Origin: a virus
Taxonomy: Duplodnaviria > Heunggongvirae > Uroviricota > Caudoviricetes
Length of the DNA stretch: 25,572 nucleotides
Virus record (IMG/VR): IMGVR_UViG_2910903598_000005
Span: 133,058-158,629 of that record
Strand: one strand, 5' to 3'
Part shown: piece by piece, positions 3,693 to 25,572 of the stretch
Layout: every line of letters starts with the position of its first letter
Position numbering within the stretch: position 1 is the first letter of the stretch
Position numbers and translations under genes: made by a program
The notes under the pieces: model-generated
What the model was told of the DNA's origin: nothing
Database searches by the model: none
The model's input: the letters and a program-made list of their open reading frames with translations, nothing else

Positions 3693-4100
3693 ATGAAATT
3701 AAACATTAAAAAACGAATGGCGGTTATTGCTGCAATTGGATGTCTCAGTATTGGTGGTATTGTGACAGGATGCACTGAAGCCGATAAGGTATCAACTAAC
3801 GTATCCAAAGAAGCAGACAATTTTAATGTCTTAAGACGATTTGCTGTAATTAATACACGAACAGATAAAGTTGAGTTTGAAATTGTTGGAGCATTTTCTT
3901 TAGAAGATGAAGGTAGTAAGAAAGTAAAACTTATTGTCGAAACAGCAGATGGCTCATATAAGAAACATATTGTCCACATGAATCGAGATAGCATGTATGT
4001 AATCGAAGATTTAGGTGGGGCTAAAGTTAACAAATATAAATATGAAGTTAACTATATTCCAGAATCAATTGTTCCATTTAAAGTTACAGAGAGTAAATAA
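3693..4100 (+). CDS. Putative lipoprotein (conserved in Firmicutes phages)
   Basis: AAGGAG SD, basic N-terminus, hydrophobic stretch and lipobox-like IVTG-C. Confidence 0.75.
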   Translation: MKLNIKKRMAVIAAIGCLSIGGIVTGCTEADKVSTNVSKEADNFNVLRRFAVINTRTDKVEFEIVGAFSLEDEGSKKVKLIVETADGSYKKHIVHMNRDSMYVIEDLGGAKVNKYKYEVNYIPESIVPFKVTESK

Positions 4101-11930: not shown

Positions 11931-12240
11931 CAGAGATTTACCAAAGAAAGATGATATTTACAAACACTTCAAAGGACATTTTTATAAAGTGATTGACCTT
12001 GCGACTCATACAGAAACAAATGAGAAACTGGTAATTTATCAGGCAATGTATGGAGATTTTAACATTTATGCCAGACCAGTAGAAATGTTTCTGAGTGAAG
12101 TTGATCACGAGAAATACCCTGATGTAGAACAGAAATACAGATTTAAGAGAGTAGGTGACAAGCCATGCAGAATCATTAGACCAGACGATATGGTAGTTGA
12201 CACCGAAGAACTTGGCATTCTAACATGCCATTATAAATAA
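11923..12240 (+). CDS. DUF1653 domain protein
   Basis: YKHFKG..YKV...[17 protein letters not shown]....YARP.EMF.SEVD..KYP...QKYRF. Confidence 0.85.
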
Positions 12241-12460
12241 TAATGTAACATTTCTAGTTACATTTCTGATGACTATTCGAGGAGAAATATCTATAGATTA
12301 GACATGTCTTATTTCTTCCATATGATGACTTTAAAATTTTGTTTTTATCTACGTTTCAATTTCTGTAGGTAAAACAATACAAAAACAAATACATAAGAAA
12401 GGTTTTATCAAGTAATCCTAGGTAAAACGCAGTGCGCTGCCTTGTAAATACAAGGTTCAA

Positions 12461-14005
12461 ATGACAGAAAATAAAAACAAAACTTCAAGAAATAAAACAT
12501 GGAAATTAGTAAATTTTTGCGAGTTTGATAAATTTGCTATCAAATCTTATTGTACAGTACATAACGTAGATGAATCGCTAAATCTTGGTGATATTACAAA
12601 AGTGGATGAAACAAAACTCAAACCATTTAATATGATTTGTGGAGGATCACCGTGCCAGGACTTTAGTATTGCAGGGAAAGGAAAAGGTTCGGTTTGGACT
12701 TGCAAACACTGTGGACATACTTATAACCCATTAACAGTCCATTGGTCTGAACGTGATGCGTGTCCAGAATGTGGCTCAAAAGATATTGAAAAGACAAGAT
12801 CCTCTTTATTGGTTGAATACTTAAGAGTTATTCGTGCCAATAAGCCAAACTTTGGTATTTATGAAAATGTAAAAAATATTGTAGGTAAAAAATTTAAAGA
12901 TACAACATTTAAATTATTTACACAGGAACTTGAAGAATATGGATATAACGTATATTGGCAAGTGCTTAACGCAAAACATTATGGTATTCCACAAAATAGA
13001 GAAAGAGTGTATCTAATCTTTATTAAGAATGAATTAGATAATGGAAAGTTTAAATATCCAGAACCATTTGATAATGGTGTTCGATTAAAAGATATTTTAG
13101 ATGACGAAGTGGATGAAAAATTCTATATCTCCAAAGATAAAGTGCAAAGATTTTTAACAAATCTTAATAATAAAGATGCTTTATTATATGATGCATGTCA
13201 GGTAAAAAGAGAAGGAAAATCAAGAGAATATAATAATTTTTGTCCTACGTTAACGTCCAGAGATTATAAAGATCCACGTCTTGTTAATGACAACATTGTA
13301 AAACAAATTGGCTCAATTTCAAAATGTGAAGGTAATTGGAATAACCCTCAAGTTGGGAGAATTTACAGCACAGATGGATGTAGCCCAACATTAAATACTT
13401 GTGGTGGCGGTAGCCATGAACCAAAGATTGTGCAGCTAGGAAATGTTAATCCATCTGGCAATGGTATGAATGGAAATGTATATGACAATGACGGGATTAG
13501 TCCAACGGTCACGACAAATAAAGGCGAAGGGTTAAAAGTAGCAATTAAACAGGCAACTAAGAAAGGCTATACGGAGTGTGAAGTTGGTGGCGTTGCAGAT
13601 CTTTCATATCCAAACTCCAAATCCAGAAGAGGCAGAGTTCAAGAAGATGGCAAAATTTGTCCGACTTTGACTGCAACCGAGACAGGAGTGTGCAGAATTG
13701 AATCAGATATTAGAATCCGAAAATTAACACCAAAAGAATGTTGGAGATTGATGGGATTTGATGATAAATCATTCAAGGCTGCTGAACAGGTAAATAGCAA
13801 CAGTCAGTTATATAAACAGGCAGGGAATTCAATTGTTGTAGATGTTTTATATTACATATTTGTTGAATTATACAAAGCAATGCCATATCTATTTGACAAT
13901 CTTAAGTTAAGCAGTTTCTTTTCTGGCATTGGAGCATTTGAGGTGGCATTAGATCGATTATATCAGGGAATTAATGAAGGAAATTTTATCAAAGGAGAAG
14001 AGTAG
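12461..14005 (+). CDS. DNA (cytosine-5)-methyltransferase, circularly permuted, multi-TRD
   Basis: Motif order II (CEFD, aa 20-23), III (GDI), IV (GGSPCQ, aa 61-66), VI (ENV), VIII (PQNRERVY), variable region, IX (RKLTPKECWRLMGF), X (KQAGNS), then I (FFSGIG, aa 486-491). Confidence 0.93.
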   Translation: MTENKNKTSRNKTWKLVNFCEFDKFAIKSYCTVHNVDESLNLGDITKVDETKLKPFNMICGGSPCQDFSIAGKGKGSVWTCKHCGHTYNPLTVHWSERDACPECGSKDIEKTRSSLLVEYLRVIRANKPNFGIYENVKNIVGKKFKDTTFKLFTQELEEYGYNVYWQVLNAKHYGIPQNRERVYLIFIKNELDNGKFKYPEPFDNGVRLKDILDDEVDEKFYISKDKVQRFLTNLNNKDALLYDACQVKREGKSREYNNFCPTLTSRDYKDPRLVNDNIVKQIGSISKCEGNWNNPQVGRIYSTDGCSPTLNTCGGGSHEPKIVQLGNVNPSGNGMNGNVYDNDGISPTVTTNKGEGLKVAIKQATKKGYTECEVGGVADLSYPNSKSRRGRVQEDGKICPTLTATETGVCRIESDIRIRKLTPKECWRLMGFDDKSFKAAEQVNSNSQLYKQAGNSIVVDVLYYIFVELYKAMPYLFDNLKLSSFFSGIGAFEVALDRLYQGINEGNFIKGEE

Positions 14006-14015
14006 CTTCTTCTCC
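13981..14015 (+). other. Predicted -1 programmed ribosomal frameshift signal
   Basis: In-frame slippery heptamer A_AAT_TTT (13981-13987), 6-nt spacer, hairpin GGAGAAGA-gtagct-TCTTCTCC (13994-14015), and upstream SD-like AGGGA (13965-13969). Confidence 0.7.
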
Positions 14016-14229
14016 AGAAATTAGTTTATTTCCATGCGTTTTAAAATATCAGAGAACCGAATATGCAAAAAAAATTCGAAAGAAATATGAGGCTGGATTG
14101 ATTCAAGAACGTATGTGCAATATGAGAGAATATGCGTTTAGAACAGACGGTATATCAAATACGCTAACGACGGTTTCAAAAGATAATTACATTTGTGAAT
14201 ACGAGGAGGAATATGAGCGAAAAGAATAG
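13987..14229 (+). CDS. -1 frame extension of the methyltransferase (80 aa, TRD-like module)
   Basis: YQRRRVASSPEISLFPCVLKYQRTEYAKKIRKKYEAGLIQERMCNMREYAFRTDGISNTLTTVSKDNYICEYEEEYERKE*. The frame is open from 13978 and has no SD-linked start of its own. Confidence 0.65.
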   Translation, partial: YQRRRVASSPEISLFPCVLKYQRTEYAKKIRKKYEAGLIQERMCNMREYAFRTDGISNTLTTVSKDNYICEYEEEYERKE

Positions 14230-14515
14230 ATATTTAGACAATTTATATTCACAGTGTCAAAGTTGTGCTAATAGGTATACTTCTTTTGAGTGTGCTTTAT
14301 GCGAAGACTTTGACATGTACAAAGAGGAATATAAAGAAGACAAAGAAGTAAAAGAACCAAATACAATTACGATCATTAAATTTGACGACTGGCAATCTAT
14401 TGAAGTCAATGGGACTAAAATAGAAAACCATAAATTAGATGTTGATGATTTTACAGATGTTTTAAAGGAATTAGGGTTCAAAGTCAACGTAGTATGGGAG
14501 GATTCAGATGTTTAA
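14213..14515 (+). CDS. Hypothetical protein with N-terminal CxxC...CxxC
   Basis: GAGGAGG SD before ATG 14213. CQSC...CALC. Confidence 0.7.
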   Translation: MSEKNRYLDNLYSQCQSCANRYTSFECALCEDFDMYKEEYKEDKEVKEPNTITIIKFDDWQSIEVNGTKIENHKLDVDDFTDVLKELGFKVNVVWEDSDV

Positions 14516-14708
14516 GATACAAGAAATTGGCAGGTCTCCAACACCTAAGAAACCAATCACTGTATATGCAGTTCGTGAAGATAAAGATAGTGACAGTTGT
14601 TGTGATTTTGAGACAGTTGAATTCCTCATATACAAAGACGATAACTGGGTTTGGGTAAGCGGCTTGTGTTATGAACCATATGGATTAAATGGATCATGTG
14701 AAATATAA
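14508..14708 (+). CDS. Small hypothetical protein
   Basis: GGGAGG SD, overlaps the upstream stop. Confidence 0.7.
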   Translation: MFKIQEIGRSPTPKKPITVYAVREDKDSDSCCDFETVEFLIYKDDNWVWVSGLCYEPYGLNGSCEI

Positions 14709-14720
14709 AAGGAGAGTTAA

Positions 14721-15131
14721 TTGTTTCAGAAATTAAAAGAGAAAATTAGAATATGGTTGTTAGAAATCCTGCAACCAGATATTGATGCCTTAAAAAATGA
14801 AATTAATGAAAGTAACACTACATTAAGATTTGCCACAAACAACTGCAATGAGGCGGCTCGTCAGTGTCAGATTTCAACAAAGCAGAATGAAGAAATGAAG
14901 AAGATGTACAACGAAATTACTGACGTAGCAGTTGACGTTGGGTTTCATGATTCAGAGCGTTCGTGGGCAGTCGTATGTATTGCTGGGAGACCTGAATATG
15001 TAAAATTTATTCCTTTAAGCGGTGCAGATGCTAGAACTGTTATGAATTTTTTAAGACAATTTCAGTATTCACGGACCATTGTTGATAGTCCTCTAAGATT
15101 CAAAGATGTGCTTCAGAGATATTTTATATAG
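14721..15131 (+). CDS. Hypothetical protein with coiled-coil N-half
   Basis: AAGGAG SD and TTG start. Confidence 0.7.
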   Translation: MFQKLKEKIRIWLLEILQPDIDALKNEINESNTTLRFATNNCNEAARQCQISTKQNEEMKKMYNEITDVAVDVGFHDSERSWAVVCIAGRPEYVKFIPLSGADARTVMNFLRQFQYSRTIVDSPLRFKDVLQRYFI

Positions 15132-15144
15132 AAGGAGATTAGCT

Positions 15145-15492
15145 ATGACAAATAAACAAACAACACTGATTATTAAAGATAGAGCAACAGGCAAAACTAC
15201 ACAATTACTCTATACGAGTGCTACAACACAGTATCCGATTATTGTGCAGAATCATTCACAGGTCAAGCTATTATTAGACAAAGCAAACGATCTTGACTTA
15301 ATTATTCCAGTGCCTATGACTGTAGAAGAATGTAAGAACAAGTATGGAATGAATTATGATCATGTTCTTATTGATGAAGGATACAATTTAATTGGCGAAG
15401 CTCTTGATGCTTATATGGGAACGCATGTGGTGGCAGTAACTTTGACTGATAGAGTAAAAGAATTTGCAGACAAGAAAGTGGTGAGATTGTAA
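15145..15492 (+). CDS. Minimal stand-alone P-loop NTPase-like protein (115 aa)
   Basis: Walker A-like DRATGKTT and Walker B-like HVLIDE. AAGGAG SD before ATG 15145. Confidence 0.65.
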   Translation: MTNKQTTLIIKDRATGKTTQLLYTSATTQYPIIVQNHSQVKLLLDKANDLDLIIPVPMTVEECKNKYGMNYDHVLIDEGYNLIGEALDAYMGTHVVAVTLTDRVKEFADKKVVRL

Positions 15493-15668
15493 TGGAAGAG
15501 CCAAATTATATAACAGTTGGACAGCTTAAAAAAGAGTTAGCAAAACACCCAGATCATATGCCAGTTGTTGGCATAGATAATGAATTTATTACTACGACAG
15601 AACATGACACTATTGCACTTGAGAATGGTGTAGGATTATACGAATTTGGAGTTGTGAGAATTTGTTAA
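15492..15668 (+). CDS. Small hypothetical protein (58 aa, MEEPNYITVGQLKKEL...), not in ORF track
   Basis: TA(A)TG coupling to the upstream gene. Shares TV..LK..L.K.PD.M.VV with the next gene. Confidence 0.65.
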   Translation: MEEPNYITVGQLKKELAKHPDHMPVVGIDNEFITTTEHDTIALENGVGLYEFGVVRIC

Positions 15669-15677
15669 GGAGGATTT

Positions 15678-15905
15678 ATGGCAGATAAAAAATTAACAGC
15701 TAAAGATATGAGTATGATTTTTGAGGAAACATGTTTAACTGTAAAAGATGTAAAAAAATTATTAGAAAAACTTCCAGACGATATGATTGTTGTGAATGAT
15801 GAATCAAATTATTACAGACCAATTGGAGATATCAACATTGAAACAATTGATTATTGCACCGAAGGCGGAAAGATCGTCTCAGGAAAAGTAGTTGGAATTT
15901 ACTAA
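15678..15905 (+). CDS. Small hypothetical protein
   Basis: AAGGAGG SD. LTVKDVKKLLEKLPDDMIVV. Confidence 0.7.
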   Translation: MADKKLTAKDMSMIFEETCLTVKDVKKLLEKLPDDMIVVNDESNYYRPIGDINIETIDYCTEGGKIVSGKVVGIY

Positions 15906-15909
15906 TTAC

Positions 15910-15927
15910 ATAAAAGAAATATTTTAT
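15910..15927. promoter_or_regulatory. Palindromic motif A (exact copy 2)
   Basis: ATAAAAgaaataTTTTAT, 5 nt after a stop codon. Confidence 0.6.
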
Positions 15928-15982
15928 CGCAAAATTGACCGTCAAAAAACCCTTATTTTACAAGGGTTTCGGTCGATGCGAT
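15926..15982. repeat. Long imperfect inverted repeat centred on motif B (AAACCCTT-N7-AAGGGTTT)
   Basis: ATCGCA...GACCG...AAACCCTT attttac AAGGGTTT CGGTC...TGCGAT. Confidence 0.7.
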
Positions 15983-16030
15983 TTTAGGAAATTTTAGAAC
16001 AATGAAGAAAATCAAGGGAATGAGGTCAAG

Positions 16031-16237
16031 ATGATTGAAATTTTAGAAAGAGGAACACGAAAACAATGCACTTGCGAAAATTGTGGTGCAGAGTTGAGTT
16101 ATGAGAAAGATGATATTAAAGATAAACCAAAGCGTACGATTGATTTCAGAACTCTCAAACCAGTGTACCCACCAAACTATATTATCTGCCCACAGTGCAA
16201 ACATCCAATCGAAGTCGAGGTAGAGAAAGATGATTAA
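16031..16237 (+). CDS. Zn-ribbon small protein
   Basis: CENC...CPQC. Confidence 0.7.
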   Translation: MIEILERGTRKQCTCENCGAELSYEKDDIKDKPKRTIDFRTLKPVYPPNYIICPQCKHPIEVEVEKDD

Positions 16238-16403
16238 GATTTTAAAAGGTGGAACTAAACGCAAAGTGAAGTGTAATGGATGTGGCGCCAAATTGAGATT
16301 TGATGAATCAGATATTAAATCTGAACTTGTCGGATACAGCTATTATAGTGGGTATGTGGAATTAATTCACTGTCCACAGTGTGGTCATAAAATTATATTG
16401 TAA
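16230..16403 (+). CDS. Zn-ribbon small protein (57 aa), paralog of the upstream gene, not in ORF track
   Basis: MIKILKGGTKRKVKCNGCGAKLRFDESDIK...IHCPQCGHKIIL aligns with MIEILERGTRKQCTCENCGAELSYEKDDIK...IICPQCKHPIEV. Confidence 0.75.
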   Translation: MIKILKGGTKRKVKCNGCGAKLRFDESDIKSELVGYSYYSGYVELIHCPQCGHKIIL

Positions 16404-16433
16404 AGTCAAACAACAGAAAGGTGGTGAAAAGCA

Positions 16434-16790
16434 GTGCATCCTAACCGATTTTTTGATGAATGTGCTATTAGAACAGGACTTGATACGGTTGAAATTTTTG
16501 ATGAAGAATTACGATCTAAACTACGTGATACACACCCAAAGAACTTTATTAAAACAAGAATAGAATTGCCAGTATATCAAATCAAACTAGCATATTTTAC
16601 AGCAAAGGGAAACTATAAAAATGCATACAGATATGCGGTATTCAACTCAAAAGATGATAACGAGTATTCTGATTTTTGGCTTGATATGTTTGTTAGGGAC
16701 TATAACAATGAGAATCCAGATCATCCAATGAAAGATTGCAAAATCTTAGATATGAAATATATCGGAGACGCTGTGCTGCCGATTGGTTAG
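16434..16790 (+). CDS. Hypothetical protein
   Basis: AAAGGTGGTG SD, GTG start, 118 aa. Confidence 0.7.
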   Translation: MHPNRFFDECAIRTGLDTVEIFDEELRSKLRDTHPKNFIKTRIELPVYQIKLAYFTAKGNYKNAYRYAVFNSKDDNEYSDFWLDMFVRDYNNENPDHPMKDCKILDMKYIGDAVLPIG

Positions 16791-16967
16791 GCTTCAACCA
16801 TCTGTGCTAATTACCTTTAGAACATAAAGGTTTTCACGAAGATATGATTTAACGGATCGTTGGTTAGATTGTATCGAAAAAGTAATGTGATAGTGATGTA
16901 AAAAGACACTCACCAAGTATGGCTTTACCTCACGGAAAACGAAATAAATTTTCGTGAGGAAGTACAT

Positions 16968-17981
16968 TTGGTTAAGAAACCTAAGAATATTGATGAATTA
17001 TTAGATACATGCCCTGCAAACAAGACAATTTGTGACAACATGATTCGGGCATGGTCAATTATAAACAGAACTGATTATAAAAAGATTTTATGCTCAATTT
17101 CTGGTGGAGCTGACAGTGATGTAATGTTAGACATGATCTGGAAATGTGATATACATAACAAGGTTGATTACATGTGGTTTGACACTGGTTTAGAGTATCA
17201 AGCAACTAAAGACCATCTTAAATATCTTGAAAATAAATATGATATTGAGATTATCCAACAGAAAGCAATTAAAGCAATTCCATTATCATGTAAGATTTAT
17301 GGACAACCATTCATGTCTAAGCATGTCAGCGAAATGATGTATAGATTGCAAAGCCACGGATTCCAATGGGAAGACAAACCATTTGATGATTTATATCAGA
17401 AGTATCCGAAGTGCAAATCTGCTCTTATGTGGTGGTGTGATTCACACGGTACGTTAAATAATGGCAAAAGATTGAGTAGTTTTAACATTAACTATAACAG
17501 ATTTTTAAAAGAATTTATAGTCCAGAACCCACCGCAATTTAAGATTTCTGGGAAGTGTTGCAACTATGCTAAGAAAGATGTATCTCATAAAGCAATAAAA
17601 GACAATGGATATGATCTAAGTATTATAGGTGTTCGGAAAGCCGAAGGCGGAGTAAGAGCATCAAGATATAAAAGTTGTTTTGATGAAAAGGTCGGGCAGT
17701 GTGATCAATACAGACCAATTTTTTGGTATTTGGATAGCGACAAATCAGAATATTGTGCATATTTTAAGATTAGCCATTCGGATTGTTATGAACGATATGG
17801 ATTAAAAAGGACAGGCTGTTGTGGGTGTCCTTTTGGTAAAGATTATCAAAACGAACTTGATATCGTAAAACAATTTGAACCAAGAATGTATAACGGTATC
17901 TGTAATATATTTAAAGATTCTTATGAGTATACAAAACAATATAGAGAATTTGTAAAGGAGAGAAAACTTGACGTTAGATAA
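16968..17981 (+). CDS. PAPS-reductase-family (PP-loop, Fe-S) protein
   Basis: PP-loop SISGGADS, FDTGLEY, SGKCC, IGVRKAEGGVR and RTGCCGCPF. GAGGA SD with TTG start. Confidence 0.85.
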   Translation: MVKKPKNIDELLDTCPANKTICDNMIRAWSIINRTDYKKILCSISGGADSDVMLDMIWKCDIHNKVDYMWFDTGLEYQATKDHLKYLENKYDIEIIQQKAIKAIPLSCKIYGQPFMSKHVSEMMYRLQSHGFQWEDKPFDDLYQKYPKCKSALMWWCDSHGTLNNGKRLSSFNINYNRFLKEFIVQNPPQFKISGKCCNYAKKDVSHKAIKDNGYDLSIIGVRKAEGGVRASRYKSCFDEKVGQCDQYRPIFWYLDSDKSEYCAYFKISHSDCYERYGLKRTGCCGCPFGKDYQNELDIVKQFEPRMYNGICNIFKDSYEYTKQYREFVKERKLDVR

Positions 17982-18615
17982 AGAAGATATTTATGACATT
18001 GCCAAGGCAGTCGTAAAAGTAATTGAAGATAAAGACATGATGAAGTCGGAAGAAAATGATTGTACCTCAGAAAAAGTAGAGCTTCAAACATTAAATGTTG
18101 GTGATGCCTTTAAGGTAGCAGGGTATGAATGGATCGTGTTAAATCAATTTAAATATGCTCAAACTTGTTTTTGCATTATGAAAGATTTTTTGGGTGATAC
18201 AAAGCCATTCGACACATATTGTAACAGATGGGAATCTAGTCGTCTTCGTCACGATTTAAAATATATCGGATGTGAAATTGAAGATAATTGTCATCATGAT
18301 GTGTTGCAGTATATGGAACGTGATTTAATGGCACTTGATGGAACAATGGCGAATGAAATAAGTATTGATAAAGTTTCTTTACTAACTTTAGACGAATATA
18401 GACTATACAGAGAGTATTTAGAATATCCAAAAACAAATAATAAATTAGCCGAGTGGGCATTATTAACGCCAACAACGAATTGTGAAACTGACGGCATTTG
18501 TGGCGTTCGTATTGACGGATCAATTGTTCCATCATGCACTTGTAGCGGATATTTTAATATTCGCCCAGTATGCACATTTATATCAGACGTGGTAGTAGAG
18601 AAGGTAGGATCATGA
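17968..18615 (+). CDS. DUF6273-like phage protein
   Basis: L..L.VGD.F...G.EWIVL...DKVSLLTLDEYR.Y...W.LLTP...IRPVC (from recall). Confidence 0.65.
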   Translation: MTLDKEDIYDIAKAVVKVIEDKDMMKSEENDCTSEKVELQTLNVGDAFKVAGYEWIVLNQFKYAQTCFCIMKDFLGDTKPFDTYCNRWESSRLRHDLKYIGCEIEDNCHHDVLQYMERDLMALDGTMANEISIDKVSLLTLDEYRLYREYLEYPKTNNKLAEWALLTPTTNCETDGICGVRIDGSIVPSCTCSGYFNIRPVCTFISDVVVEKVGS

Positions 18616-19013
18616 ATGCAAATGATAAGTTAAAGAAATGGATCAATCATAATTATTTGACAAAAGGAGATAGAAGAATGATTACAGATAAAACAAAATG
18701 GAATGACGAAAATTATTATAGCGAAAATTTCAAAGAAATCATGTATGACAAAATTACAGCAGGAATTGATTTAACGGAAAGCGAGCTTAAAGGATTGGCA
18801 TGTGAATTTCCATTTTATGAAATTGAAAAAGATAGAGATAGTTTTACCGTGGATACGCAGTCGATTGTTAAACTCCGTGACAAGTATTTTGCTATTAATT
18901 GGCAGCAAGGTTTAGAAGATTTTGAGGATAGTAAATTTGGCGCCCAGCCATATGAAGTGAAGAAAGTAAATCGAATGACTACTGAATGGGTTCCAGTAAA
19001 ACAGGATTCATAA
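18612..19013 (+). CDS. Hypothetical phage protein
   Basis: ATGA coupling at 18612. A second SD AAAGGAG lies before an in-frame ATG at 18678. Confidence 0.7.
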   Translation: MNANDKLKKWINHNYLTKGDRRMITDKTKWNDENYYSENFKEIMYDKITAGIDLTESELKGLACEFPFYEIEKDRDSFTVDTQSIVKLRDKYFAINWQQGLEDFEDSKFGAQPYEVKKVNRMTTEWVPVKQDS

Positions 19014-19031
19014 AATAAATGTTTTGTGTAC

Positions 19032-19067
19032 AAAAAAAGATACCACCTCAATTAAGAAGTGGTATCT
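19032..19067 (-). terminator. Intrinsic terminator on the minus strand
   Basis: Minus strand AGATACCACTTC-ttaatt-GAGGTGGTATCT followed by a T run: 12-bp stem with one G-U pair, then the U tract. Confidence 0.8.
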
Positions 19068-19112
19068 CGTATACAAAATTACACCGTTTCCAAACTAAGT
19101 TGATTTATGTGC
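19032..19112 (-). ncRNA. Predicted ~80-nt small RNA, candidate crRNA-like RNA
   Basis: Bounded by TGTG-C-TATAAT (19129-19119) and the terminator, with no internal SD-led ORF. Sequence GCACATAAATCAACTTA-GTTTGGAAACGGTGTAATTTTGTATACG-terminator. Confidence 0.6.
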
Positions 19113-19118
19113 AAATTT

Positions 19119-19129
19119 ATTATAGCACA
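19119..19129 (-). promoter_or_regulatory. Extended -10 promoter (TRTG-n-TATAAT) firing leftwards
   Basis: Perfect TGTGCTATAAT on the minus strand. Poor -35, which extended -10 promoters can tolerate. Confidence 0.7.
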
Positions 19130-19141
19130 GGAAGGAGAAAT

Positions 19142-19615
19142 ATGGAACAGGTTTTTACATCAGACTATGAGGATGTTTATAAAGTTAAAGATGGCGTAAT
19201 GTTTCACGTTAAGAAATATAGCAGGGTGCGTGATGAAAAAACTGGTAGATACCGATGTATTAAGCTTGAAGATAGAATGAAGCTTAAAAACTATATTAAA
19301 GATAAGAGCTATCAAAATTGTTGTTTAAAAATTGCAAGTGAAGATGTGCATATTGACAACGGGTTTTGGTCTGGTGAGTATACATTGATCCAGAAAGGTT
19401 CAGTGTTTGACGGTGATTTTATTATTAAACCAGTTAGTCCACATTTTTATCGGTATGAAATTAAAACATCTGGAGACGCATTTAATGGAGATATTATCCA
19501 AATGAATAAAATGGTTAAAGATATCATGGAAGTAATAAATGGCGAAGTGTATAAGGATATTTTTGAGCAGTTAAATCAAATTGGGGACCTTCGTTATAAA
19601 CCACATTATGAGTAA
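19142..19615 (+). CDS. Hypothetical protein (157 aa) divergent from the sRNA
   Basis: GAAGGAG SD before ATG 19142. The track start at 19019 lacks an SD and spans the sRNA. Confidence 0.75.
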   Translation: MEQVFTSDYEDVYKVKDGVMFHVKKYSRVRDEKTGRYRCIKLEDRMKLKNYIKDKSYQNCCLKIASEDVHIDNGFWSGEYTLIQKGSVFDGDFIIKPVSPHFYRYEIKTSGDAFNGDIIQMNKMVKDIMEVINGEVYKDIFEQLNQIGDLRYKPHYE

Positions 19616-19662
19616 GAGAAATAAAATTTGACTTTGAAATAAGAAAAGGAGAGATAAGAAAC

Positions 19663-20826
19663 TTGGCAAAAGAAAGAGCGTTAGCACATATTGAAGAAAT
19701 TGCATGGATTAAACCAATTGATGGTGCAGATAATATCGAACTAATTGGCGTTCTTGGTTGGGTATTAATCGCAAAAATTGATGAATTTAAAGTTGGGGAC
19801 AAAGCTGTATTTGTTGAAATTGACAGCAAATGCCCAGCAGATGATGAGAGATTTGCTTTTCTAGAGAAGAAGCATTATAAGGTCAAAACAATGAAACTCG
19901 GAAAATTTAAATGTTTTAGTCAAGGGTTAGCATTACCACTTACATTATTCCCAGAATTATCTGATAGAAAACTTGGTGATGATGTTACAAAGGAATTAAG
20001 AATTACATATTCTTCCGAAGAAGATCGTAAGAGAAAATCGAATAAAGTAGATACAAACGCTAAATATAAAGCTATGGCTGCAAGACATAAAGAATTTTTC
20101 TCGAAACCAATCATCAGAAAAATCATGAGGTACGACATTGGTAGAAAAATTTTATTCTTGTTCTTTGGTAAGAAAAAAGATAATCCTAAACAGTTCCCAT
20201 CATGGATTGTGAAGACAGATGAAAACCGAATTGAAAATTGCCCATTCTATCTTGAATCTAATGAGGAGTGGGTTCAAACAGAGAAAATTGATGGAACGTC
20301 TTGCACATATGCTGTTGATCGGATGAAACGTGGCAAAAACAAATTCGAGTTTGTTGTATGTAGTAGAAATGTCCGACAGGCTGACAGAGATCAGGAATGT
20401 TATCATGACTCAAATATCTACTGGGAACTTGCCGACAAATATAATATTGAAAAGGTTTTAAGTGACTATGCTATTGCAAATAATTACGATCGTGTTGTTT
20501 TACAGGGAGAAGGTACAGGTAGCGTACAAGGAAATCCTTATAAATTGAAAGACAATCGCTTATTCGTATTCAATTTGGTAGTTGAAGGAATTCGTAAAGG
20601 TACACAGGAAATGGCAAAATTCTGTGAAGAAAACAACTTAGAACATGTGCCAATTATCAACGAACACTACAAAACGCCTGACACGATGGAAGAGATTAAA
20701 CTTCAGGCTGATGGATTCAGTATTATCAATCCAAAAGTTAAAAGAGAAGGATTTGTATACAGAAGTCTTGACGGACAGCAAAGTTTCAAAAATGTCAGCA
20801 GAGAGTATCTGCTAAAACACCAGTAA
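19663..20826 (+). CDS. ATP-dependent RNA ligase, DRB0094/Rnl2-like family
   Basis: N-terminal OB-like module (IKPIDGADNIE...FKVGD..VFVEIDS), then motif I EKIDG, LQGEG, FVFNL, EGFV and FKNVS..YL. Confidence 0.9.
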   Translation: MAKERALAHIEEIAWIKPIDGADNIELIGVLGWVLIAKIDEFKVGDKAVFVEIDSKCPADDERFAFLEKKHYKVKTMKLGKFKCFSQGLALPLTLFPELSDRKLGDDVTKELRITYSSEEDRKRKSNKVDTNAKYKAMAARHKEFFSKPIIRKIMRYDIGRKILFLFFGKKKDNPKQFPSWIVKTDENRIENCPFYLESNEEWVQTEKIDGTSCTYAVDRMKRGKNKFEFVVCSRNVRQADRDQECYHDSNIYWELADKYNIEKVLSDYAIANNYDRVVLQGEGTGSVQGNPYKLKDNRLFVFNLVVEGIRKGTQEMAKFCEENNLEHVPIINEHYKTPDTMEEIKLQADGFSIINPKVKREGFVYRSLDGQQSFKNVSREYLLKHQ

Positions 20827-20857
20827 AATAAAGGGTTTTTGACGATTGGATTTTTAC

Positions 20858-20875
20858 ATAAAACTCGAATTTTAT
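20858..20875. promoter_or_regulatory. Palindromic motif A (exact copy 3)
   Basis: ATAAAActcgaaTTTTAT just before the SD of the kinase-HD gene. Confidence 0.6.
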
Positions 20876-20892
20876 AACACGAAAGGAGAATT

Positions 20893-21894
20893 ATGAGCAA
20901 AAGAAAACCAAGACTTACATTATTGTGTGGCTTATCAGCATCTGGTAAGTCACAATACATAAACACTGTTTCACAAGGCAGTGGCAATGAAGTTATCACT
21001 ATATCAACAGATGGCATTAGAGAAAATATATGTGGAAGAGTAGAAGATCAGTCAAAAAATAAAGAAGTATTTCAGACATTTCATAACCTGATTGTCAAGT
21101 ATCTTAAAAATGGTATTGACGTTGTAGCAGAAGCAACGAATATTACTATGAAATCCAGAAGAGCCATTCTCAATGTCATCAAAGGAATTGATTGCGAGAA
21201 AGTTTGCGTGGTTATCGTAAAGCCGATTAATGAGTGTAAGAAAGACAATATCGACAGAGAACATCCCGTTCCAGGATATGTAATTGACAAACAGGCAAGA
21301 AAATTCCAGATTCCATTCCTTGAAGAAGGATGGGATAAGATTGAATTTGTTGATCATATAACCGATATAAACAGATACATTTTTAAGATTGAAAACAAAT
21401 GGGTTCCAGAAGAGTATAACGACTTTGACCAAAAGAATCCGTATCATATGGAATCTCTTGGCAAACATATGACAGATGCCTATGATTTTTCAAAAAAGAT
21501 TCATAACGATTATTCAGTGTTAGTGGCTACTAAATATCACGATATGGGTAAATTATACACTCAGACATTCGATGAGAATGGTGTGGCACACTATTACGGA
21601 CATGAAAATATTGGTGCATATATGATGTTGGTCTATGAGGTTGCAAATCAGCATTGTTTATTTGTGAATCATAATATAGGAGACATTGCTTTCTATATTA
21701 ATTACCACATGCTACCGTTCCAATGGAAACCCAACGGTACTAAAACAGAAACAAAATGGGCAAAACGCTTCGGATCAAAAAAATATCACAACTTATGGGA
21801 TATGCATATTGCTGATTTAATAGCATCAAAAAGAAAAGATAAAGATGTATGCACAGAAATCCTTGAAAATCGAGGACGTGACGATGAATCCTAA
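20893..21894 (+). CDS. Polynucleotide-kinase-like P-loop domain fused to a C-terminal HD phosphoesterase
   Basis: [21 protein letters not shown] and FQIP...EEGW, then H...[20 protein letters not shown] and ADL. Confidence 0.85.
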
Positions 21895-22021
21895 GTATAA
21901 CCCACCTAACCCAGACGCTCAGTTAAACAATCCGTGTTATTACGATTCTGAGCAGTTTGAGTTAGAGGAAGAGTTTGAACTACAAAATTATCCAGATGAC
22001 GAGGAGGATACAGATGATTAA
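21884..22021 (+). CDS. Small acidic hypothetical protein (45 aa), not in ORF track
   Basis: [31 protein letters not shown]... Confidence 0.55.
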
Positions 22022-22280
22022 ATTACACTTATGGCAGTTTATGCTTTGCAATTTGGGAACTGTTGCCATTGGCGCATTTCTTGGTGCTATGGTAGCAGGC
22101 GGATTCCTTATCCGCAAACTTGACATTGCTAGACTTCAGGAATTGATTGATGACAATGAGGCAAAGATTGAATTTCTCGAACAGGAACGAGAAGAAATTG
22201 ATGATGAGATCGATGAATTAGATGATAAGTCTGATGAAGATAATGATGACATTATTACAGGCGAGGAGGACGAAGAGTAA
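22014..22280 (+). CDS. Membrane-anchored protein with acidic coiled tail
   Basis: GAGGAGG SD before ATG 22014. N-terminal TM segment and D/E-rich tail. Confidence 0.7.
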
Positions 22281-22438
22281 TGGAAGAACTTTCCAAAGCG
22301 GTTATTGAGTTGCAGCTCTCATATGGCTTGAGTCTGCGAACAATTCAGAAGATGGTGCGTGATGTATACAAAAATACAAATGATGCACCGCCAACAGGTA
22401 TTACACCTAAGACAACTAAATCAAAATCAACTAAATAA
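22280..22438 (+). CDS. Small hypothetical protein (52 aa, [11 protein letters not shown]...), not in ORF track
   Basis: TA(A)TG coupling. The ORF fills the gap. Confidence 0.6.
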   Translation: MEELSKAVIELQLSYGLSLRTIQKMVRDVYKNTNDAPPTGITPKTTKSKSTK

Positions 22439-22451
22439 GGAGTGAATTACT

Positions 22452-23147
22452 ACGGCTAATTTCTTACAGCGTAAAGAATATTTTGGAAAGTATCGTGTTG
22501 TGGCAGCATATAACATGGATACTAATGATTTTCCTAGAACTGATGCAGGATTAATAGATCCTAGCTTTGATGATTTGTACATAAAATGCTCATTTGGTAA
22601 TCAGATATATTACTACGGAAAAGGTAAGCATAGAGGTGAATATACCCTTGTAGCTTACATCCCCTCATTAATAAGAGGGCGTAATGTTATAAAGGCAATT
22701 CGAGAGATAGACAAAGATATTCCCTATTATATAGAAGAAACTGATAAAGAAGTGCTGTTTAGATTTGATGTGAAACATCTGGATACTGTTGCCGAGTTGC
22801 TGAAGGCACAGAAGAGTAGAATCCGTGACGATGGAACTTACAAATATATCTCACCTTTTTCACCAAAAAACTTGCCAAAAACACCTTATAAAATTCCAGA
22901 TGATGAATTGAGTACCTACAAGAAATTAACTGCAAATTTGAAGCGTGAGGAGATGTATAAGGTAGGGCGGATTGCAACTAGATTCTTAAAAGAAAAGATA
23001 TGCTCACGCAAGTTTACATTCCAAGACTTGAAAGCAGAACAGAAAAAGATGGGGTTGAAAGGCAAGAACTATATTCATGCCAAAGGATTATGGGACGAAT
23101 ATTGCCGATACACAGAAAACGAACTACGCAAGGAGAATTTATTATGA
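22452..23147 (+). CDS. Hypothetical phage protein, probable non-canonical ACG start
   Basis: SD AAGGAG 22437-22442, in-frame TGA 22443, ACG 22452 at 9-nt spacing. The frame continues ANFLQRKEYFGKYRV into the track GTG at 22500. Confidence 0.65.
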   Translation, partial: TANFLQRKEYFGKYRVVAAYNMDTNDFPRTDAGLIDPSFDDLYIKCSFGNQIYYYGKGKHRGEYTLVAYIPSLIRGRNVIKAIREIDKDIPYYIEETDKEVLFRFDVKHLDTVAELLKAQKSRIRDDGTYKYISPFSPKNLPKTPYKIPDDELSTYKKLTANLKREEMYKVGRIATRFLKEKICSRKFTFQDLKAEQKKMGLKGKNYIHAKGLWDEYCRYTENELRKENLL

Positions 23148-23551
23148 GTACAAATAATGTAATGATGACCGAAAACGATAAAAGAAACGTAGAAAACACA
23201 GACTTACAGAAGCAGATTAAAGAAGAAAAACATAAGCTTAATTTCATTAAAGATGTGGACAAGCTGCTCAAGAAATATAAATTGCCAAAAGATTATCTGT
23301 ATCTGGCGGCTAAAAAATCAAGTCTTAACACAGATCGCAAGTTATACATGATTGAAGTTGAAACATTTAATGACGGTGTGTATGACGGCAATGTGACCTT
23401 AATCGTACATGGCACTGAAGATGAAGTGAAAAAACAGCAGAAGTTATTGGTTGAAAAATTAAAAGAACAGTACAAAGACGAAACAGAAATGACTTTTGAG
23501 GATTCTTACTACAACGAAGTTGGATTGCCTCTGATGCTTTGTAAACGATAG
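23144..23551 (+). CDS. Hypothetical protein
   Basis: AAGGAG SD before ATG 23144 (ATGA-type overlap with the upstream stop region). Confidence 0.7.
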   Translation: MSTNNVMMTENDKRNVENTDLQKQIKEEKHKLNFIKDVDKLLKKYKLPKDYLYLAAKKSSLNTDRKLYMIEVETFNDGVYDGNVTLIVHGTEDEVKKQQKLLVEKLKEQYKDETEMTFEDSYYNEVGLPLMLCKR

Positions 23552-23623
23552 TTTACATACCATAATGACGAAATATTAAATTTTGTGAAAGTTGCACAAA
23601 GAAAATGGAAAGGAAATACATAT

Positions 23624-24145
23624 ATGGGATTATTAACAGAAAGCGGATTAATGAAAGTTGCAGAGTTTGAGAAAGTATCGTTTGACCAGTTCGTACAGGA
23701 CTGGGAAAAACAGATGGTTAGATACCCAGAAGAATCAATCTATGGTAGCTTAAAATTACCTTATCGTAAAACAATTGACTCCGCAGGGCATGACTTTATT
23801 AGTCCAGCAGATATTACAATTCGTCCAGGAGATGCACGAGTTATCCCAACAGGAATTAGATGCAAAATTGAAAAAGGATGGGTATTATTAGTATTCATTC
23901 GCAGTAGTTTGGGCATCAAAGCACAGGCTAGAATTGGTAACGGTACAGGAGTAATTGATGGTGACTACTATCACGCAGACAATGAAGGGCATATCTTTAT
24001 CAAGGTTGAGAATCATGGCAATGAACCACTGAAACTCAAGAAAGGTGATGCGTTTGCGCAGGGAGTTTTCCTACCTTATGGTGTAGCCGATAAAGAAGCT
24101 GTAACAACTAAAAGAACTGGCGGAATTGGAAGTACAGGTAAATAA
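23624..24145 (+). CDS. dut: Trimeric dUTPase
   Basis: SAGHDF, RSSLG, GVIDGDY, AQGVF and RTGGIGSTG motifs. AAAGGA SD before ATG 23624. Confidence 0.93.
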   Translation: MGLLTESGLMKVAEFEKVSFDQFVQDWEKQMVRYPEESIYGSLKLPYRKTIDSAGHDFISPADITIRPGDARVIPTGIRCKIEKGWVLLVFIRSSLGIKAQARIGNGTGVIDGDYYHADNEGHIFIKVENHGNEPLKLKKGDAFAQGVFLPYGVADKEAVTTKRTGGIGSTGK

Positions 24146-24535
24146 ATGACAAAAGAATTAATCAGTGCTGCGGATATGAAAGCGTATTCGCAGCATGGAG
24201 AAACAAAACAACTTAATGAGGTTTTTGAGGACCTATATGATGATTTAGTGAAAGAAATTTGGAGAACCGCAGAAATTAATGGCAGATTAGAATGTAGACT
24301 TTCAACTGCGTTAATGACGTGCGATGAGTGCAAATCAAGTGATAGATGTATTACAGAGTTACTACCACTGATCAATAGAGGGTATGCATATATCATAACG
24401 AGAAGATATACCACTTCTATCTCTTATTTTTATAATATCTATGTTAGTTGGTCAGGACATGCACCAAATATTAGTGGATATCCATCTCCAACGCAAGGTA
24501 AAGAAAAAGTAGTTTATTCATCTTATATTCAGTAA
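24146..24535 (+). CDS. Hypothetical protein
   Basis: 129-aa ORF abutting dut. Confidence 0.6.
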   Translation: MTKELISAADMKAYSQHGETKQLNEVFEDLYDDLVKEIWRTAEINGRLECRLSTALMTCDECKSSDRCITELLPLINRGYAYIITRRYTTSISYFYNIYVSWSGHAPNISGYPSPTQGKEKVVYSSYIQ

Positions 24536-24554
24536 ATTTTTGGAGGATTTATAT

Positions 24555-25331
24555 ATGATTAAGATTGAACACCCAGTATTCCCAAGTCCAGAGCAGTGGA
24601 TGTTTGCTATTGAAGGAGCTAGAAACGCATACGATAGTTGGCACTTAAGTGATAGCTACATTGGACATACCACAGAATATGATAAAGAAAGAAATGTAGA
24701 AATCTGGCATCCATGTTTTTGTATGGGCGAAAAAGATTTAGGTTTATTTAAAAGACTTGCAAGAGCAGGTAAGGATCATAGAAAGGCTTTACGATCACTG
24801 CCAGTTGGATTACGAATTACATCTCATCACACATGGTGGGCGCAAGCAGATACATATAAAGTTGGAACAACAAGATGTAGTTGCTCTAAAATGCACACAA
24901 TTCACAAAAAAGAATTTGACTTAGATAGTTTTTCTCATGAAGGTATTGATGTCATAATTGATAAATTTTCATTATCTGCTCACGAAGAATTTGAAAATGG
25001 ATTTGACACTTTAGGCGTTGAAAATACGCTTGGGTATAAAGTTAAACGACACACAGAAAATACTATTCAGTTACTAAATGAACTTAAAGATGAGTACAAT
25101 GCAACAAAGGATAAAAATATTTGGAATGCAATTCTTGAAATGCTACCTATGGGATATAATATCACAGCAAATCTTTCTCTTACTTATGAAGTGCTTTTAA
25201 ATATGTATTTTTCACGAAAGACACATCCAGTAAAGGATTGGAGAATCTTCTGCCAGTGGATGTTAGACAATGTGCCATATTTCAAAGAACTTGTAGAACA
25301 TATTGAAGGGCAGAATAAAAAAGTAGATTAA
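24555..25331 (+). CDS. Divergent ThyX-like (flavin-dependent thymidylate synthase fold) protein
   Basis: GARNAYDS, DHRKALR, WWAQADTYKVGTTRCSCSKMH, LLEMLP-like ILEMLPMG, YEVLLNMYFSRKTH..DWR.FC. The canonical RHR-x7-S is absent. GGAGG SD before ATG 24555. Confidence 0.65.
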   Translation: MIKIEHPVFPSPEQWMFAIEGARNAYDSWHLSDSYIGHTTEYDKERNVEIWHPCFCMGEKDLGLFKRLARAGKDHRKALRSLPVGLRITSHHTWWAQADTYKVGTTRCSCSKMHTIHKKEFDLDSFSHEGIDVIIDKFSLSAHEEFENGFDTLGVENTLGYKVKRHTENTIQLLNELKDEYNATKDKNIWNAILEMLPMGYNITANLSLTYEVLLNMYFSRKTHPVKDWRIFCQWMLDNVPYFKELVEHIEGQNKKVD

Positions 25332-25362
25332 ATCCTTATTTAATGATTGGAGATTATCGCAT

Positions 25363-25572
25363 ATGAAGAAAAAAGAAAAACCACAGATTCCAATTTGGGA
25401 GCGAGCCAACTTAACTATTGATGAGGCTTCTGTTTATTTTCACATAGGAGCTGCAAAATTACGGGAATTAGCAGATAATCCAACTGTAAATTTCGTGCTT
25501 GAAATTGGAACAAGACGTTTAATTAAACGTAAACAATTCGAACAATATCTTGAAAACAAAAGATATCTGTAA
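25363..25572 (+). CDS. xis: Excisionase / winged-HTH protein (Tn916-Xis-like)
   Basis: IPIWERANLTIDEASVYFHIG..KLREL...FVL.IG.RRLIKRKQFEQYL. Confidence 0.8.
   Translation: MKKKEKPQIPIWERANLTIDEASVYFHIGAAKLRELADNPTVNFVLEIGTRRLIKRKQFEQYLENKRYL

Follow-up and report, generated by a model that had tools for sequence, protein, structure and literature searches.

A putative minus-strand RNA of a large gut phage with likeness to a type II-A CRISPR repeat, a candidate decoy for tracrRNA and Cas9

Does a short minus-strand transcription unit in a phage genome encode an RNA that imitates a type II-A CRISPR RNA, and could such an RNA act on Cas9? The window analyzed here is a stretch of 25,572 nucleotides, a portion of a phage genome of ~160 kb, and all genes are on the plus strand. 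These include genes for an NAD ligase, NrdD, a DNA methyltransferase, a PAPS-reductase-like protein, an RNA ligase, and a polynucleotide kinase (PNK). The unit is placed in a gap of 128 nt between two plus-strand genes, which encode proteins of 147 and 157 amino acids (Table 1). An earlier note on this DNA had described it as self-contained, and the promoter, predicted start, and terminator are all as described there. The extended -10 promoter, TGTGCTATAAT, is the sole occurrence of TRTGnTATAAT in the window, where 0.33 would be expected by chance. Its -35 region is poor, and for this reason the promoter scan has no entry for it. The region upstream of the promoter overlaps the ribosome-binding site (RBS) and start of the 157-aa gene. 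Two terminator-like sites are present in 12000-25572, and the hairpin of the unit is one of them. On the plus strand no T-run follows this hairpin, and the terminator is thus one-directional.

Table 1. Features of the minus-strand unit and of its surroundings, in positions of the window.
Feature	Position	Strand	Basis or remark
Extended -10 promoter TGTGCTATAAT, TRTGnTATAAT type	19129-19119	-	Read directly in the sequence
Predicted transcription start (G), 7 nt past the -10	19112	-	Inferred from promoter geometry
5' guide-like segment, 17 nt (17-21 nt in relatives)	19112-19096	-	Sequence and alignment of relatives
Repeat-like segment, corresponds to first 24 nt of type II-A CRISPR repeat	19095-19072	-	Repeat comparison
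Intrinsic terminator, 13-bp stem, 6-nt loop, then T7	19068-19032	-	Hairpin 19068-19037, T7 19038-19032
Conserved arm, inverted repeat with 19070-19080	19021-19031		Outside the predicted RNA; overlaps palindrome 19010-19027
Upstream flanking gene, 147 aa, no known family	18570-19013	+	Family searches
Downstream flanking gene, 157 aa, orphan (phrog_21582), RBS 19131-19138	19142-19615	+	Back to back with the RNA promoter
RNA ligase	19663-20826	+	Downstream of the 157-aa gene
Polynucleotide kinase (PNK)	20893-21894	+	After the RNA ligase

The predicted minus-strand RNA is ~81 nt long (19112 to 19032), and its fold consists of the terminator and a weak 5' hairpin. No match to it was found in Rfam at gathering or permissive thresholds, with the CRISPR-DR families included. 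Two RNA-library contigs of read length (155 and 151 nt) cover the locus. Each crosses the promoter or the terminator, so that both predicted ends are crossed, and they are therefore uninformative on the sRNA. These contigs probably end where strains diverge. Some other identities were considered for the unit. An antisense RNA of a type I toxin-antitoxin pair was rejected, as no small hydrophobic toxin ORF lies opposite and the opposite strand is a non-coding gap. The unit is also not a viral single guide RNA (vsgRNA) or tracr-L, since it folds without an internal anti-repeat, nexus, or hairpins and has only the weak 5' hairpin and the terminator.

The surroundings contain genes of the counter-defense type, namely those for the DNA methyltransferase, the RNA ligase, and PNK. 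The last two (19663-21894) form an RNA-repair pair of the type that phages deploy against anticodon nucleases. Neither Pfam nor PADLOC has a family for the flanking 147-aa and 157-aa proteins, and neither protein was recognized as a known Acr or Aca. The fold model of the 157-aa protein has a pLDDT of 40.8, too poor for a structure search. In some sister phages (L024:3578-3943 and its relatives), the RNA unit and the homolog of the 157-aa gene are separated by an inserted 121-aa protein that has two CxxC pairs; the junction is at the RBS.

The likeness to a CRISPR repeat was proposed from the GTTTG-N6-GTGTAATTT spacing, which is present in the repeat-like segment; this segment continues to 19059. 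The repeat class with such spacing, which the earlier note had named, does exist. When 185,579 species genomes were scanned for two copies of the GTTT(G/T)-N7-TGTAATTT layout, at least 120 arrays were found. Clostridia MAGs from gut, rumen, and digesters contribute most of these, and the class is also present in Peptoniphilus, Anaerococcus, Helcococcus, Staphylococcus, Veillonella, and Treponema. Two of the loci, L131 and L128, encode Cas9, Cas1, and Csn2, and the class is therefore type II-A. Mature II-A crRNA ends at repeat nucleotide 24, as established in S. pyogenes. The likeness stops at this same nucleotide, and past it the identity is at a random level (4/12). It therefore covers the portion kept in mature crRNA, as had been suggested. 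The match is in sense orientation, within the promoter-terminator unit, and starts 17-21 nt after the start site.

How strong the match is depends on the copy. The copy in the window agrees with class repeats, which are not the host's own, at 20-21 of 24 positions (21/24 to the L188 type). Elsewhere in the window the best chance site reaches 19/24, against 20/24 for this copy. With a profile built from 63 class repeats, the copy scores 7.6 bits (E about 1). Thus, the match claimed in the earlier note is weak for the very sequence from which it was drawn, and it is borne out by two sister variants, B and C, which match real repeats at 22-23/24. Variant C agrees at 22/24 with the L103 and L131 repeats and at 23/24 with repeats of the metagenomic arrays L188, L194, and L200. 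Its profile score is 17.9 bits (E 6e-4) and that of variant B is 15-16 bits, and the next site has 7 bits. In the whole G002 genome (160,660 bp, both strands), the next best class match is 19/24. By a rough estimate, a genome-wide match as strong as those of variants C and B would be unexpected even allowing for many comparable repeat families. It is from the scores of these sister-phage orthologs that the repeat match is significant.

The element also has some of the properties by which related elements have been classified. Like viral scaRNAs, it has at least 20 nt of repeat at >80% identity with repeat nucleotide 1 included. Like solitary repeat units, it is intergenic, with no second repeat within 100 bp and no cas genes. 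In all, 24-25 of the 36 repeat nucleotides are alike, with ~67% coverage, which makes it a partial match by coverage alone (50-90%, with full matches starting at 90%), apart from the BLAST score cut-off. Repeat positions 6-7 are an invariant AG in real repeats and are drifting in the phage variants. In JGI metagenomes, a scan for arrays whose repeats are identical to the phage version found none. Repeat-like sequence is absent from the flanks of the unit, and the idea of a mini-array was dropped because a second repeat downstream is absent by eye. A similarity of the plus strand to array leaders was also discarded, being in the wrong orientation and of low complexity. Taken on sequence comparison, the repeat-like segment quite probably derives from a II-A repeat, and the window copy has drifted.

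Searches of GenBank phages with the DNA and the flanking proteins found no relatives except for one protein match of 30%. IMG/VR contains 40 related contigs of ~160-kb phages, of which 39 are readable. A block from ~18998 to the downstream start codon (18998-19141) is near-invariant in 38 of these 39, despite a drop of the upstream protein to 47% identity. The downstream gene in the relatives encodes either a diverged 157-aa homolog or a different protein with CxxC pairs, 121 aa in length. The contig L031 (IMGVR_UViG_3300045988_133024) does not have the block and retains the 147-aa gene at 91% identity, and the unit is therefore dispensable. The block is single-copy in both complete genomes checked (G002 and G003). 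Promoter/stem-loop (PeSL) cassettes of the T4 type, which stand at module junctions beside variable genes, are present in many copies per genome. A cassette of this kind was ruled out on the single copy.

The -10 promoter is present in all 38 contigs, with single-base variants in three. There are 16 RNA variants, which fall into a few types; B and C together account for 23 of the 38 contigs, and decay has gone furthest in the window copy. Variation is almost absent from the promoter, the terminator, and the stretch between 19084 and the terminator. In the guide-like segment the first 13 nt are conserved and the 3' end varies by substitutions and by indels of 1-4 nt. The repeat-like part varies at positions 1, 6, 7, 11, and 12, and all of these changes are purine transitions. 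It is free of indels across the homologs, which thus keep the repeat part while the guide 3' end changes, a pattern that the earlier note had put forward as a check. The 5' hairpin is compatible with all variants and is not distinguishable from shuffles. No compensatory change was found among the variants, and the shuffle control attains the observed value in 500 of 500 cases.

The conserved block is longer than the predicted RNA. The palindrome at 19010-19027 and the 11-nt arm that overlaps it are conserved in all relatives although they are outside this RNA. The palindrome is a near-copy of a recurrent intergenic palindrome, ATAAAA-N6-TTTTAT. The arm would lengthen the hairpin in a read-through or plus-strand RNA, and the inverted repeat with 19070-19080 is in agreement with the hairpin extension that had been pointed out beforehand. 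The invariance of 19070-19080 may be due to this inverted repeat rather than to pairing with tracrRNA.

Pairing with a tracrRNA was explored with L131, a complete locus that is a stand-in and not the host. Its tracrRNA is antisense, is located just upstream of cas9, and has its own terminator, and the anti-repeat is near L131 584-630. With this anti-repeat, the predicted duplex energy (in kcal/mol) is -23 to -29 for the phage RNA, -23.3 for the first 24 nt of the native repeat, and -9 +/- 3 for shuffled phage RNA. The suggested fold with tracrRNA is thus, in silico and with L131 in place of the host, as strong as that of the native repeat. This strength follows from the resemblance of the sequence to the repeat and hence does not count as separate evidence. 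At positions 1, 6, and 7, the bases substituted in the phage all lie opposite U in the L131 tracrRNA, so that pairing with it would be retained; they suit the internal 5' hairpin as well. A tracrRNA survey of other loci was not robust, as most matches were unmasked repeats. At L131:600-665, the tracrRNA promoter TGTGCTATGAT is back to back with the cas9 RBS. This arrangement and its sequence resemble those of the phage RNA promoter and the RBS of the 157-aa gene, which could reflect a shared consensus or a shared origin.

The guide-like segment had been called short, which does not hold well, as 17-21 nt is not clearly short. Nor was the idea of a target at the cas9 promoter borne out. In 80 class loci (L062-L141), no match of 11/12 or better to the 12-mers at the guide 3' end is located near the promoter of cas9 or of tracrRNA. 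No guide match was seen by eye in the cas9-upstream region of L131. Viral scaRNA guides are recognized by 3' 10-11 nt that are identical to the guide of a host scaRNA or tracr-L and that match the cas9 promoter next to a PAM, and no such match is present in L062-L141, the complete locus L131 included. The phage genome itself contains no guide target. Full-guide matches in IMG/VR are few, at chance level, and have no common flank, and nothing convincing was found elsewhere. The conservation of the guide 5' 13 nt while the seed end varies argues against a simple seed-driven guide.

One partial match was seen. For variants B and C, the guide has a 13/13-nt match at its 3' end to the 5' UTR of an ORF for a hydrophobic peptide of 33 aa, ~600 nt past the II-A array of L130. 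This match is near chance (one in 1.1 Mb), and L130 is from a digester and not the gut. The ORF may be a CRISPR-linked small toxin, or the match may be chance. In L130:3560-3810 (minus strand), a solitary degenerate repeat is located ~450 nt past the II-A array and is followed by a strong promoter and the RBS of the 33-aa ORF. In L103 (reverse complement, ~3727-3910), a full solitary repeat is located 148 nt after the last array repeat, and a hydrophobic ORF of 34 aa runs into it.

The host was sought through spacers and through relatives. From 94 class arrays, 1095 spacers were taken and searched for in the window, in 61 related loci, in G001 (82 kb), and throughout G002. Agreement reached 22-24/30 at best, which is not convincing, and these spacers therefore provide no host link. 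The 147-aa protein and its homologs occur in metagenome assemblies only. No match was found in seven genomes of the family of G004, and no relative was found among 399 sampled genomes of one class. A match in G069 (E 8.5e-6) was rejected as a relative, since it covers 57 nt at 81% identity within the RNA ligase gene, well away from the element. Among five array-bearing genomes, a homolog is present in G008 alone (38% identity), and RNA ligase matches are uninformative on the host.

The most likely reading is that the phage RNA is a decoy for type II tracrRNA and Cas9, of the Racr or viral scaRNA kind, and we consider the chances of this to be about even. An RNA of ~81 nt would be transcribed leftward from the extended -10 promoter and would end at its own terminator. 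Nucleotides 18-41 of this RNA would be derived from the first 24 nt of a type II-A repeat. The repeat segment would pair with the anti-repeat of the host tracrRNA, and the hybrid would be loaded into Cas9. Both tracrRNA and Cas9 would then be tied up with a 5' segment of 17-21 nt chosen by the phage in place of a phage-targeting spacer, and CRISPR interference would be weakened by sequestration. That the RNA is transcribed, that the host has a Cas9 system to match, and that the RNA binds and inhibits it are steps that we infer.

Other explanations need to be weighed against a decoy. The RNA could be a phage sRNA of an ordinary kind, cis-antisense or trans-acting, that resembles a CRISPR repeat by chance; we regard this as unlikely, if the least so of the alternatives. 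It would act on the plus-strand polycistronic mRNA across the gap, by control of processing or of translation of the 157-aa protein, or on another mRNA. There is no terminator on the plus strand here, so that any minus-strand RNA would be fully complementary to read-through mRNA, and the RNA-library contigs span the whole gap. The repeat score of the window copy alone is not significant, and the 5' hairpin suits every variant. However, this hairpin has no covariation support (shuffles 500/500). Chance would also have to produce the agreement of variants B and C, found in 23/38 contigs, which at 22-23/24 is far beyond the genome-wide background, and to place it in sense orientation, 17-21 nt past the start site, with its stop at the mature crRNA end. 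A quite different proposal is that there is no RNA gene and that the block acts at the DNA level or on the plus strand, as a recombination junction of swappable modules, a protein-binding site, or a hairpin that processes or stabilizes plus-strand mRNA. The block (18998-19141) does exceed the RNA and takes in the palindrome and the extended inverted repeat. A G/A polymorphism at 19027 preserves pairing on plus-strand RNA only, the flanking genes are mosaic, and L031 is without the block. This proposal is nevertheless very improbable, as a perfect extended -10 and a one-directional T7 terminator are on the same strand with the spacing of an sRNA and are both conserved. The single-copy block is also unlike repeated regulatory cassettes, and the repeat likeness would be left unexplained.

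As a narrower form of the decoy reading, the 5' segment could also be a working guide, so that the RNA would be a true viral scaRNA that brings Cas9 to a DNA site for repression or cutting. Candidate targets would be the cas9 promoter, a CRISPR-linked toxin gene, or a rival phage. Its polarity and length are those of a crRNA, with a guide of 17-21 nt and then the start of a repeat, and the guide 3' end differs between variants as if there were different targets. The 13/13 match of variants B and C in the L130 5' UTR and precedents (bioRxiv 10.64898/2026.06.01.729453; 10.1101/2024.10.29.618823) also point this way. Against this are the near-chance level of the L130 13-mer, the lack of matches of 11/12 or better near the cas9 and tracrRNA promoters in the 80 class loci (L062-L141), the lack of a target in the phage genome, and IMG/VR matches without a common flank. 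The guide is moreover conserved in its 5' 13 nt and variable in its seed, and such a scaRNA therefore seems improbable, though slightly less so than a block with no RNA gene. It is only faintly probable that the RNA does both, as a ready-made and self-terminating crRNA, independent of trimming by RNase III, that sequesters tracrRNA and Cas9 and also steers Cas9 by variant-specific guides. We would give equally little weight to the idea that the site steered to is one protecting CRISPR immunity, such as the cas9 promoter or a small CRISPR-linked toxin like the candidate beside the L130 array.

The layout of the candidate decoy can be compared with units found elsewhere. The array L072 ends in a degenerate repeat that is fused to a terminator. 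Its terminal repeat and terminator are like the phage unit in having 25-30 nt of repeat and then a hairpin; unlike it, they belong to a host array. The capture of a last spacer, terminal repeat, and terminator from an array end with a layout of the L072 type is a plausible origin of the phage unit. When IMG/VR was scanned for the class, solitary copies turned up in viral contigs that are unrelated, for example L231 and L251. In L231:2343-2401, the first 30 nt of the repeat are immediately followed by a terminator. This unit is in a siphophage tail module, between the tail chaperone genes and the tape measure gene. In L251:8715-8790, 25 nt of the repeat are followed by a hairpin. By eye, both L231 and L251 have a -10-like box directly before the repeat, and the promoter scan listed none. 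As the box abuts the repeat, there would be little or no guide. These two are therefore like the phage unit in the repeat start and terminator and unlike it in the guide. From these sequences, the layout of a repeat start plus a terminator recurs in phages. Full-length class repeats are also present in the viral contigs at L236:6909-6944 and L221:10305-10340, where they are flanked by direct repeats of 11-21 nt as if inserted.

RNA-based inhibitors of CRISPR systems have been described previously. Racr RNAs have been demonstrated for type I and V-A systems and bind Cas proteins directly (Camara-Wilpert et al., 2023; PMC10651486). The same work lists solitary repeats in viruses for all CRISPR types other than VI; those of type II were only catalogued (PMC10651486). 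Viral crRNA-like regulators have been described for types I and V (10.1101/2024.10.29.618823). Against Cas9, phage single guide RNAs (vsgRNAs) and 29 viral scaRNAs (vscaRNAs) have been reported (Feussner et al., bioRxiv 10.64898/2026.06.01.729453, June 2026). The 29 vscaRNAs belong to three guide-RNA groups, and the examples shown are from Lactobacillus and Ligilactobacillus. Each of the 29 has an Acr or Aca nearby, and a guide of 11 nt is common to them and to a host scaRNA that targets the cas9 promoter. Both sequestration and redirection of Cas9 have been proposed as their effects (10.64898/2026.06.01.729453). Contigs of the ~160-kb family were not found among the vsgRNA rows listed, and the phage element is also absent from the vscaRNA rows listed (10.64898/2026.06.01.729453). 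The view that a type II version encoded by a phage would be new has thus been overtaken by these studies of 2023 (PMC10651486) and June 2026 (bioRxiv 10.64898/2026.06.01.729453).

The phage RNA is like the vscaRNAs in having a guide and then a repeat-like element that is able to pair with tracrRNA. It differs in the Cas9 clade, that of the GTTTGAGA...TGTAATTT repeats. Its guide is 17-21 nt with no target found, and no Acr or Aca was recognized. A terminator of its own follows the repeat, which is cut short at nucleotide 24, and the RNA is carried by a family of ~160-kb phages. Like a Racr, it is a solitary repeat unit directly downstream of its own strong promoter, without cas genes, and it is proposed to compete with crRNA. 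Unlike a Racr, a type II mimic must work through tracrRNA, and about two thirds of the repeat are present here. The scaRNA of Francisella and tracr-L are also natural RNAs that program Cas9 with a non-canonical guide; as the preprints describe them, these are encoded by the host within the CRISPR locus, unlike the phage RNA (Workman et al., 2021, via the preprints). In the same descriptions, tracr-L and the vsgRNAs contain an internal anti-repeat, a nexus, and hairpins, which the phage RNA does not have. Thus, the phage RNA probably adds to the known RNA decoys another Cas9 clade, a family of large gut phages as a carrier, and a terminator that replaces the 3' third of the repeat.

If a decoy function is not confirmed, the block would be a strongly conserved regulatory cassette at a recombination junction. 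If the guided reading were true, an abundant family of ~160-kb gut phages would silence Cas9 together with its back-up. If the decoy is confirmed, its compact design of promoter, guide, 24 nt of repeat, and terminator would be one that recurs in unrelated phages and is easily searched for. Host prediction could then use the RNA as a marker, and the design of minimal crRNAs could take it as a natural template. It would cover another Cas9 clade, with Treponema denticola-like repeats that are common in Clostridia. RNA-based inhibition of Cas9 would then reach beyond the prophages of Streptococcus and Lactobacillus to widespread large phages of uncultivated gut bacteria.
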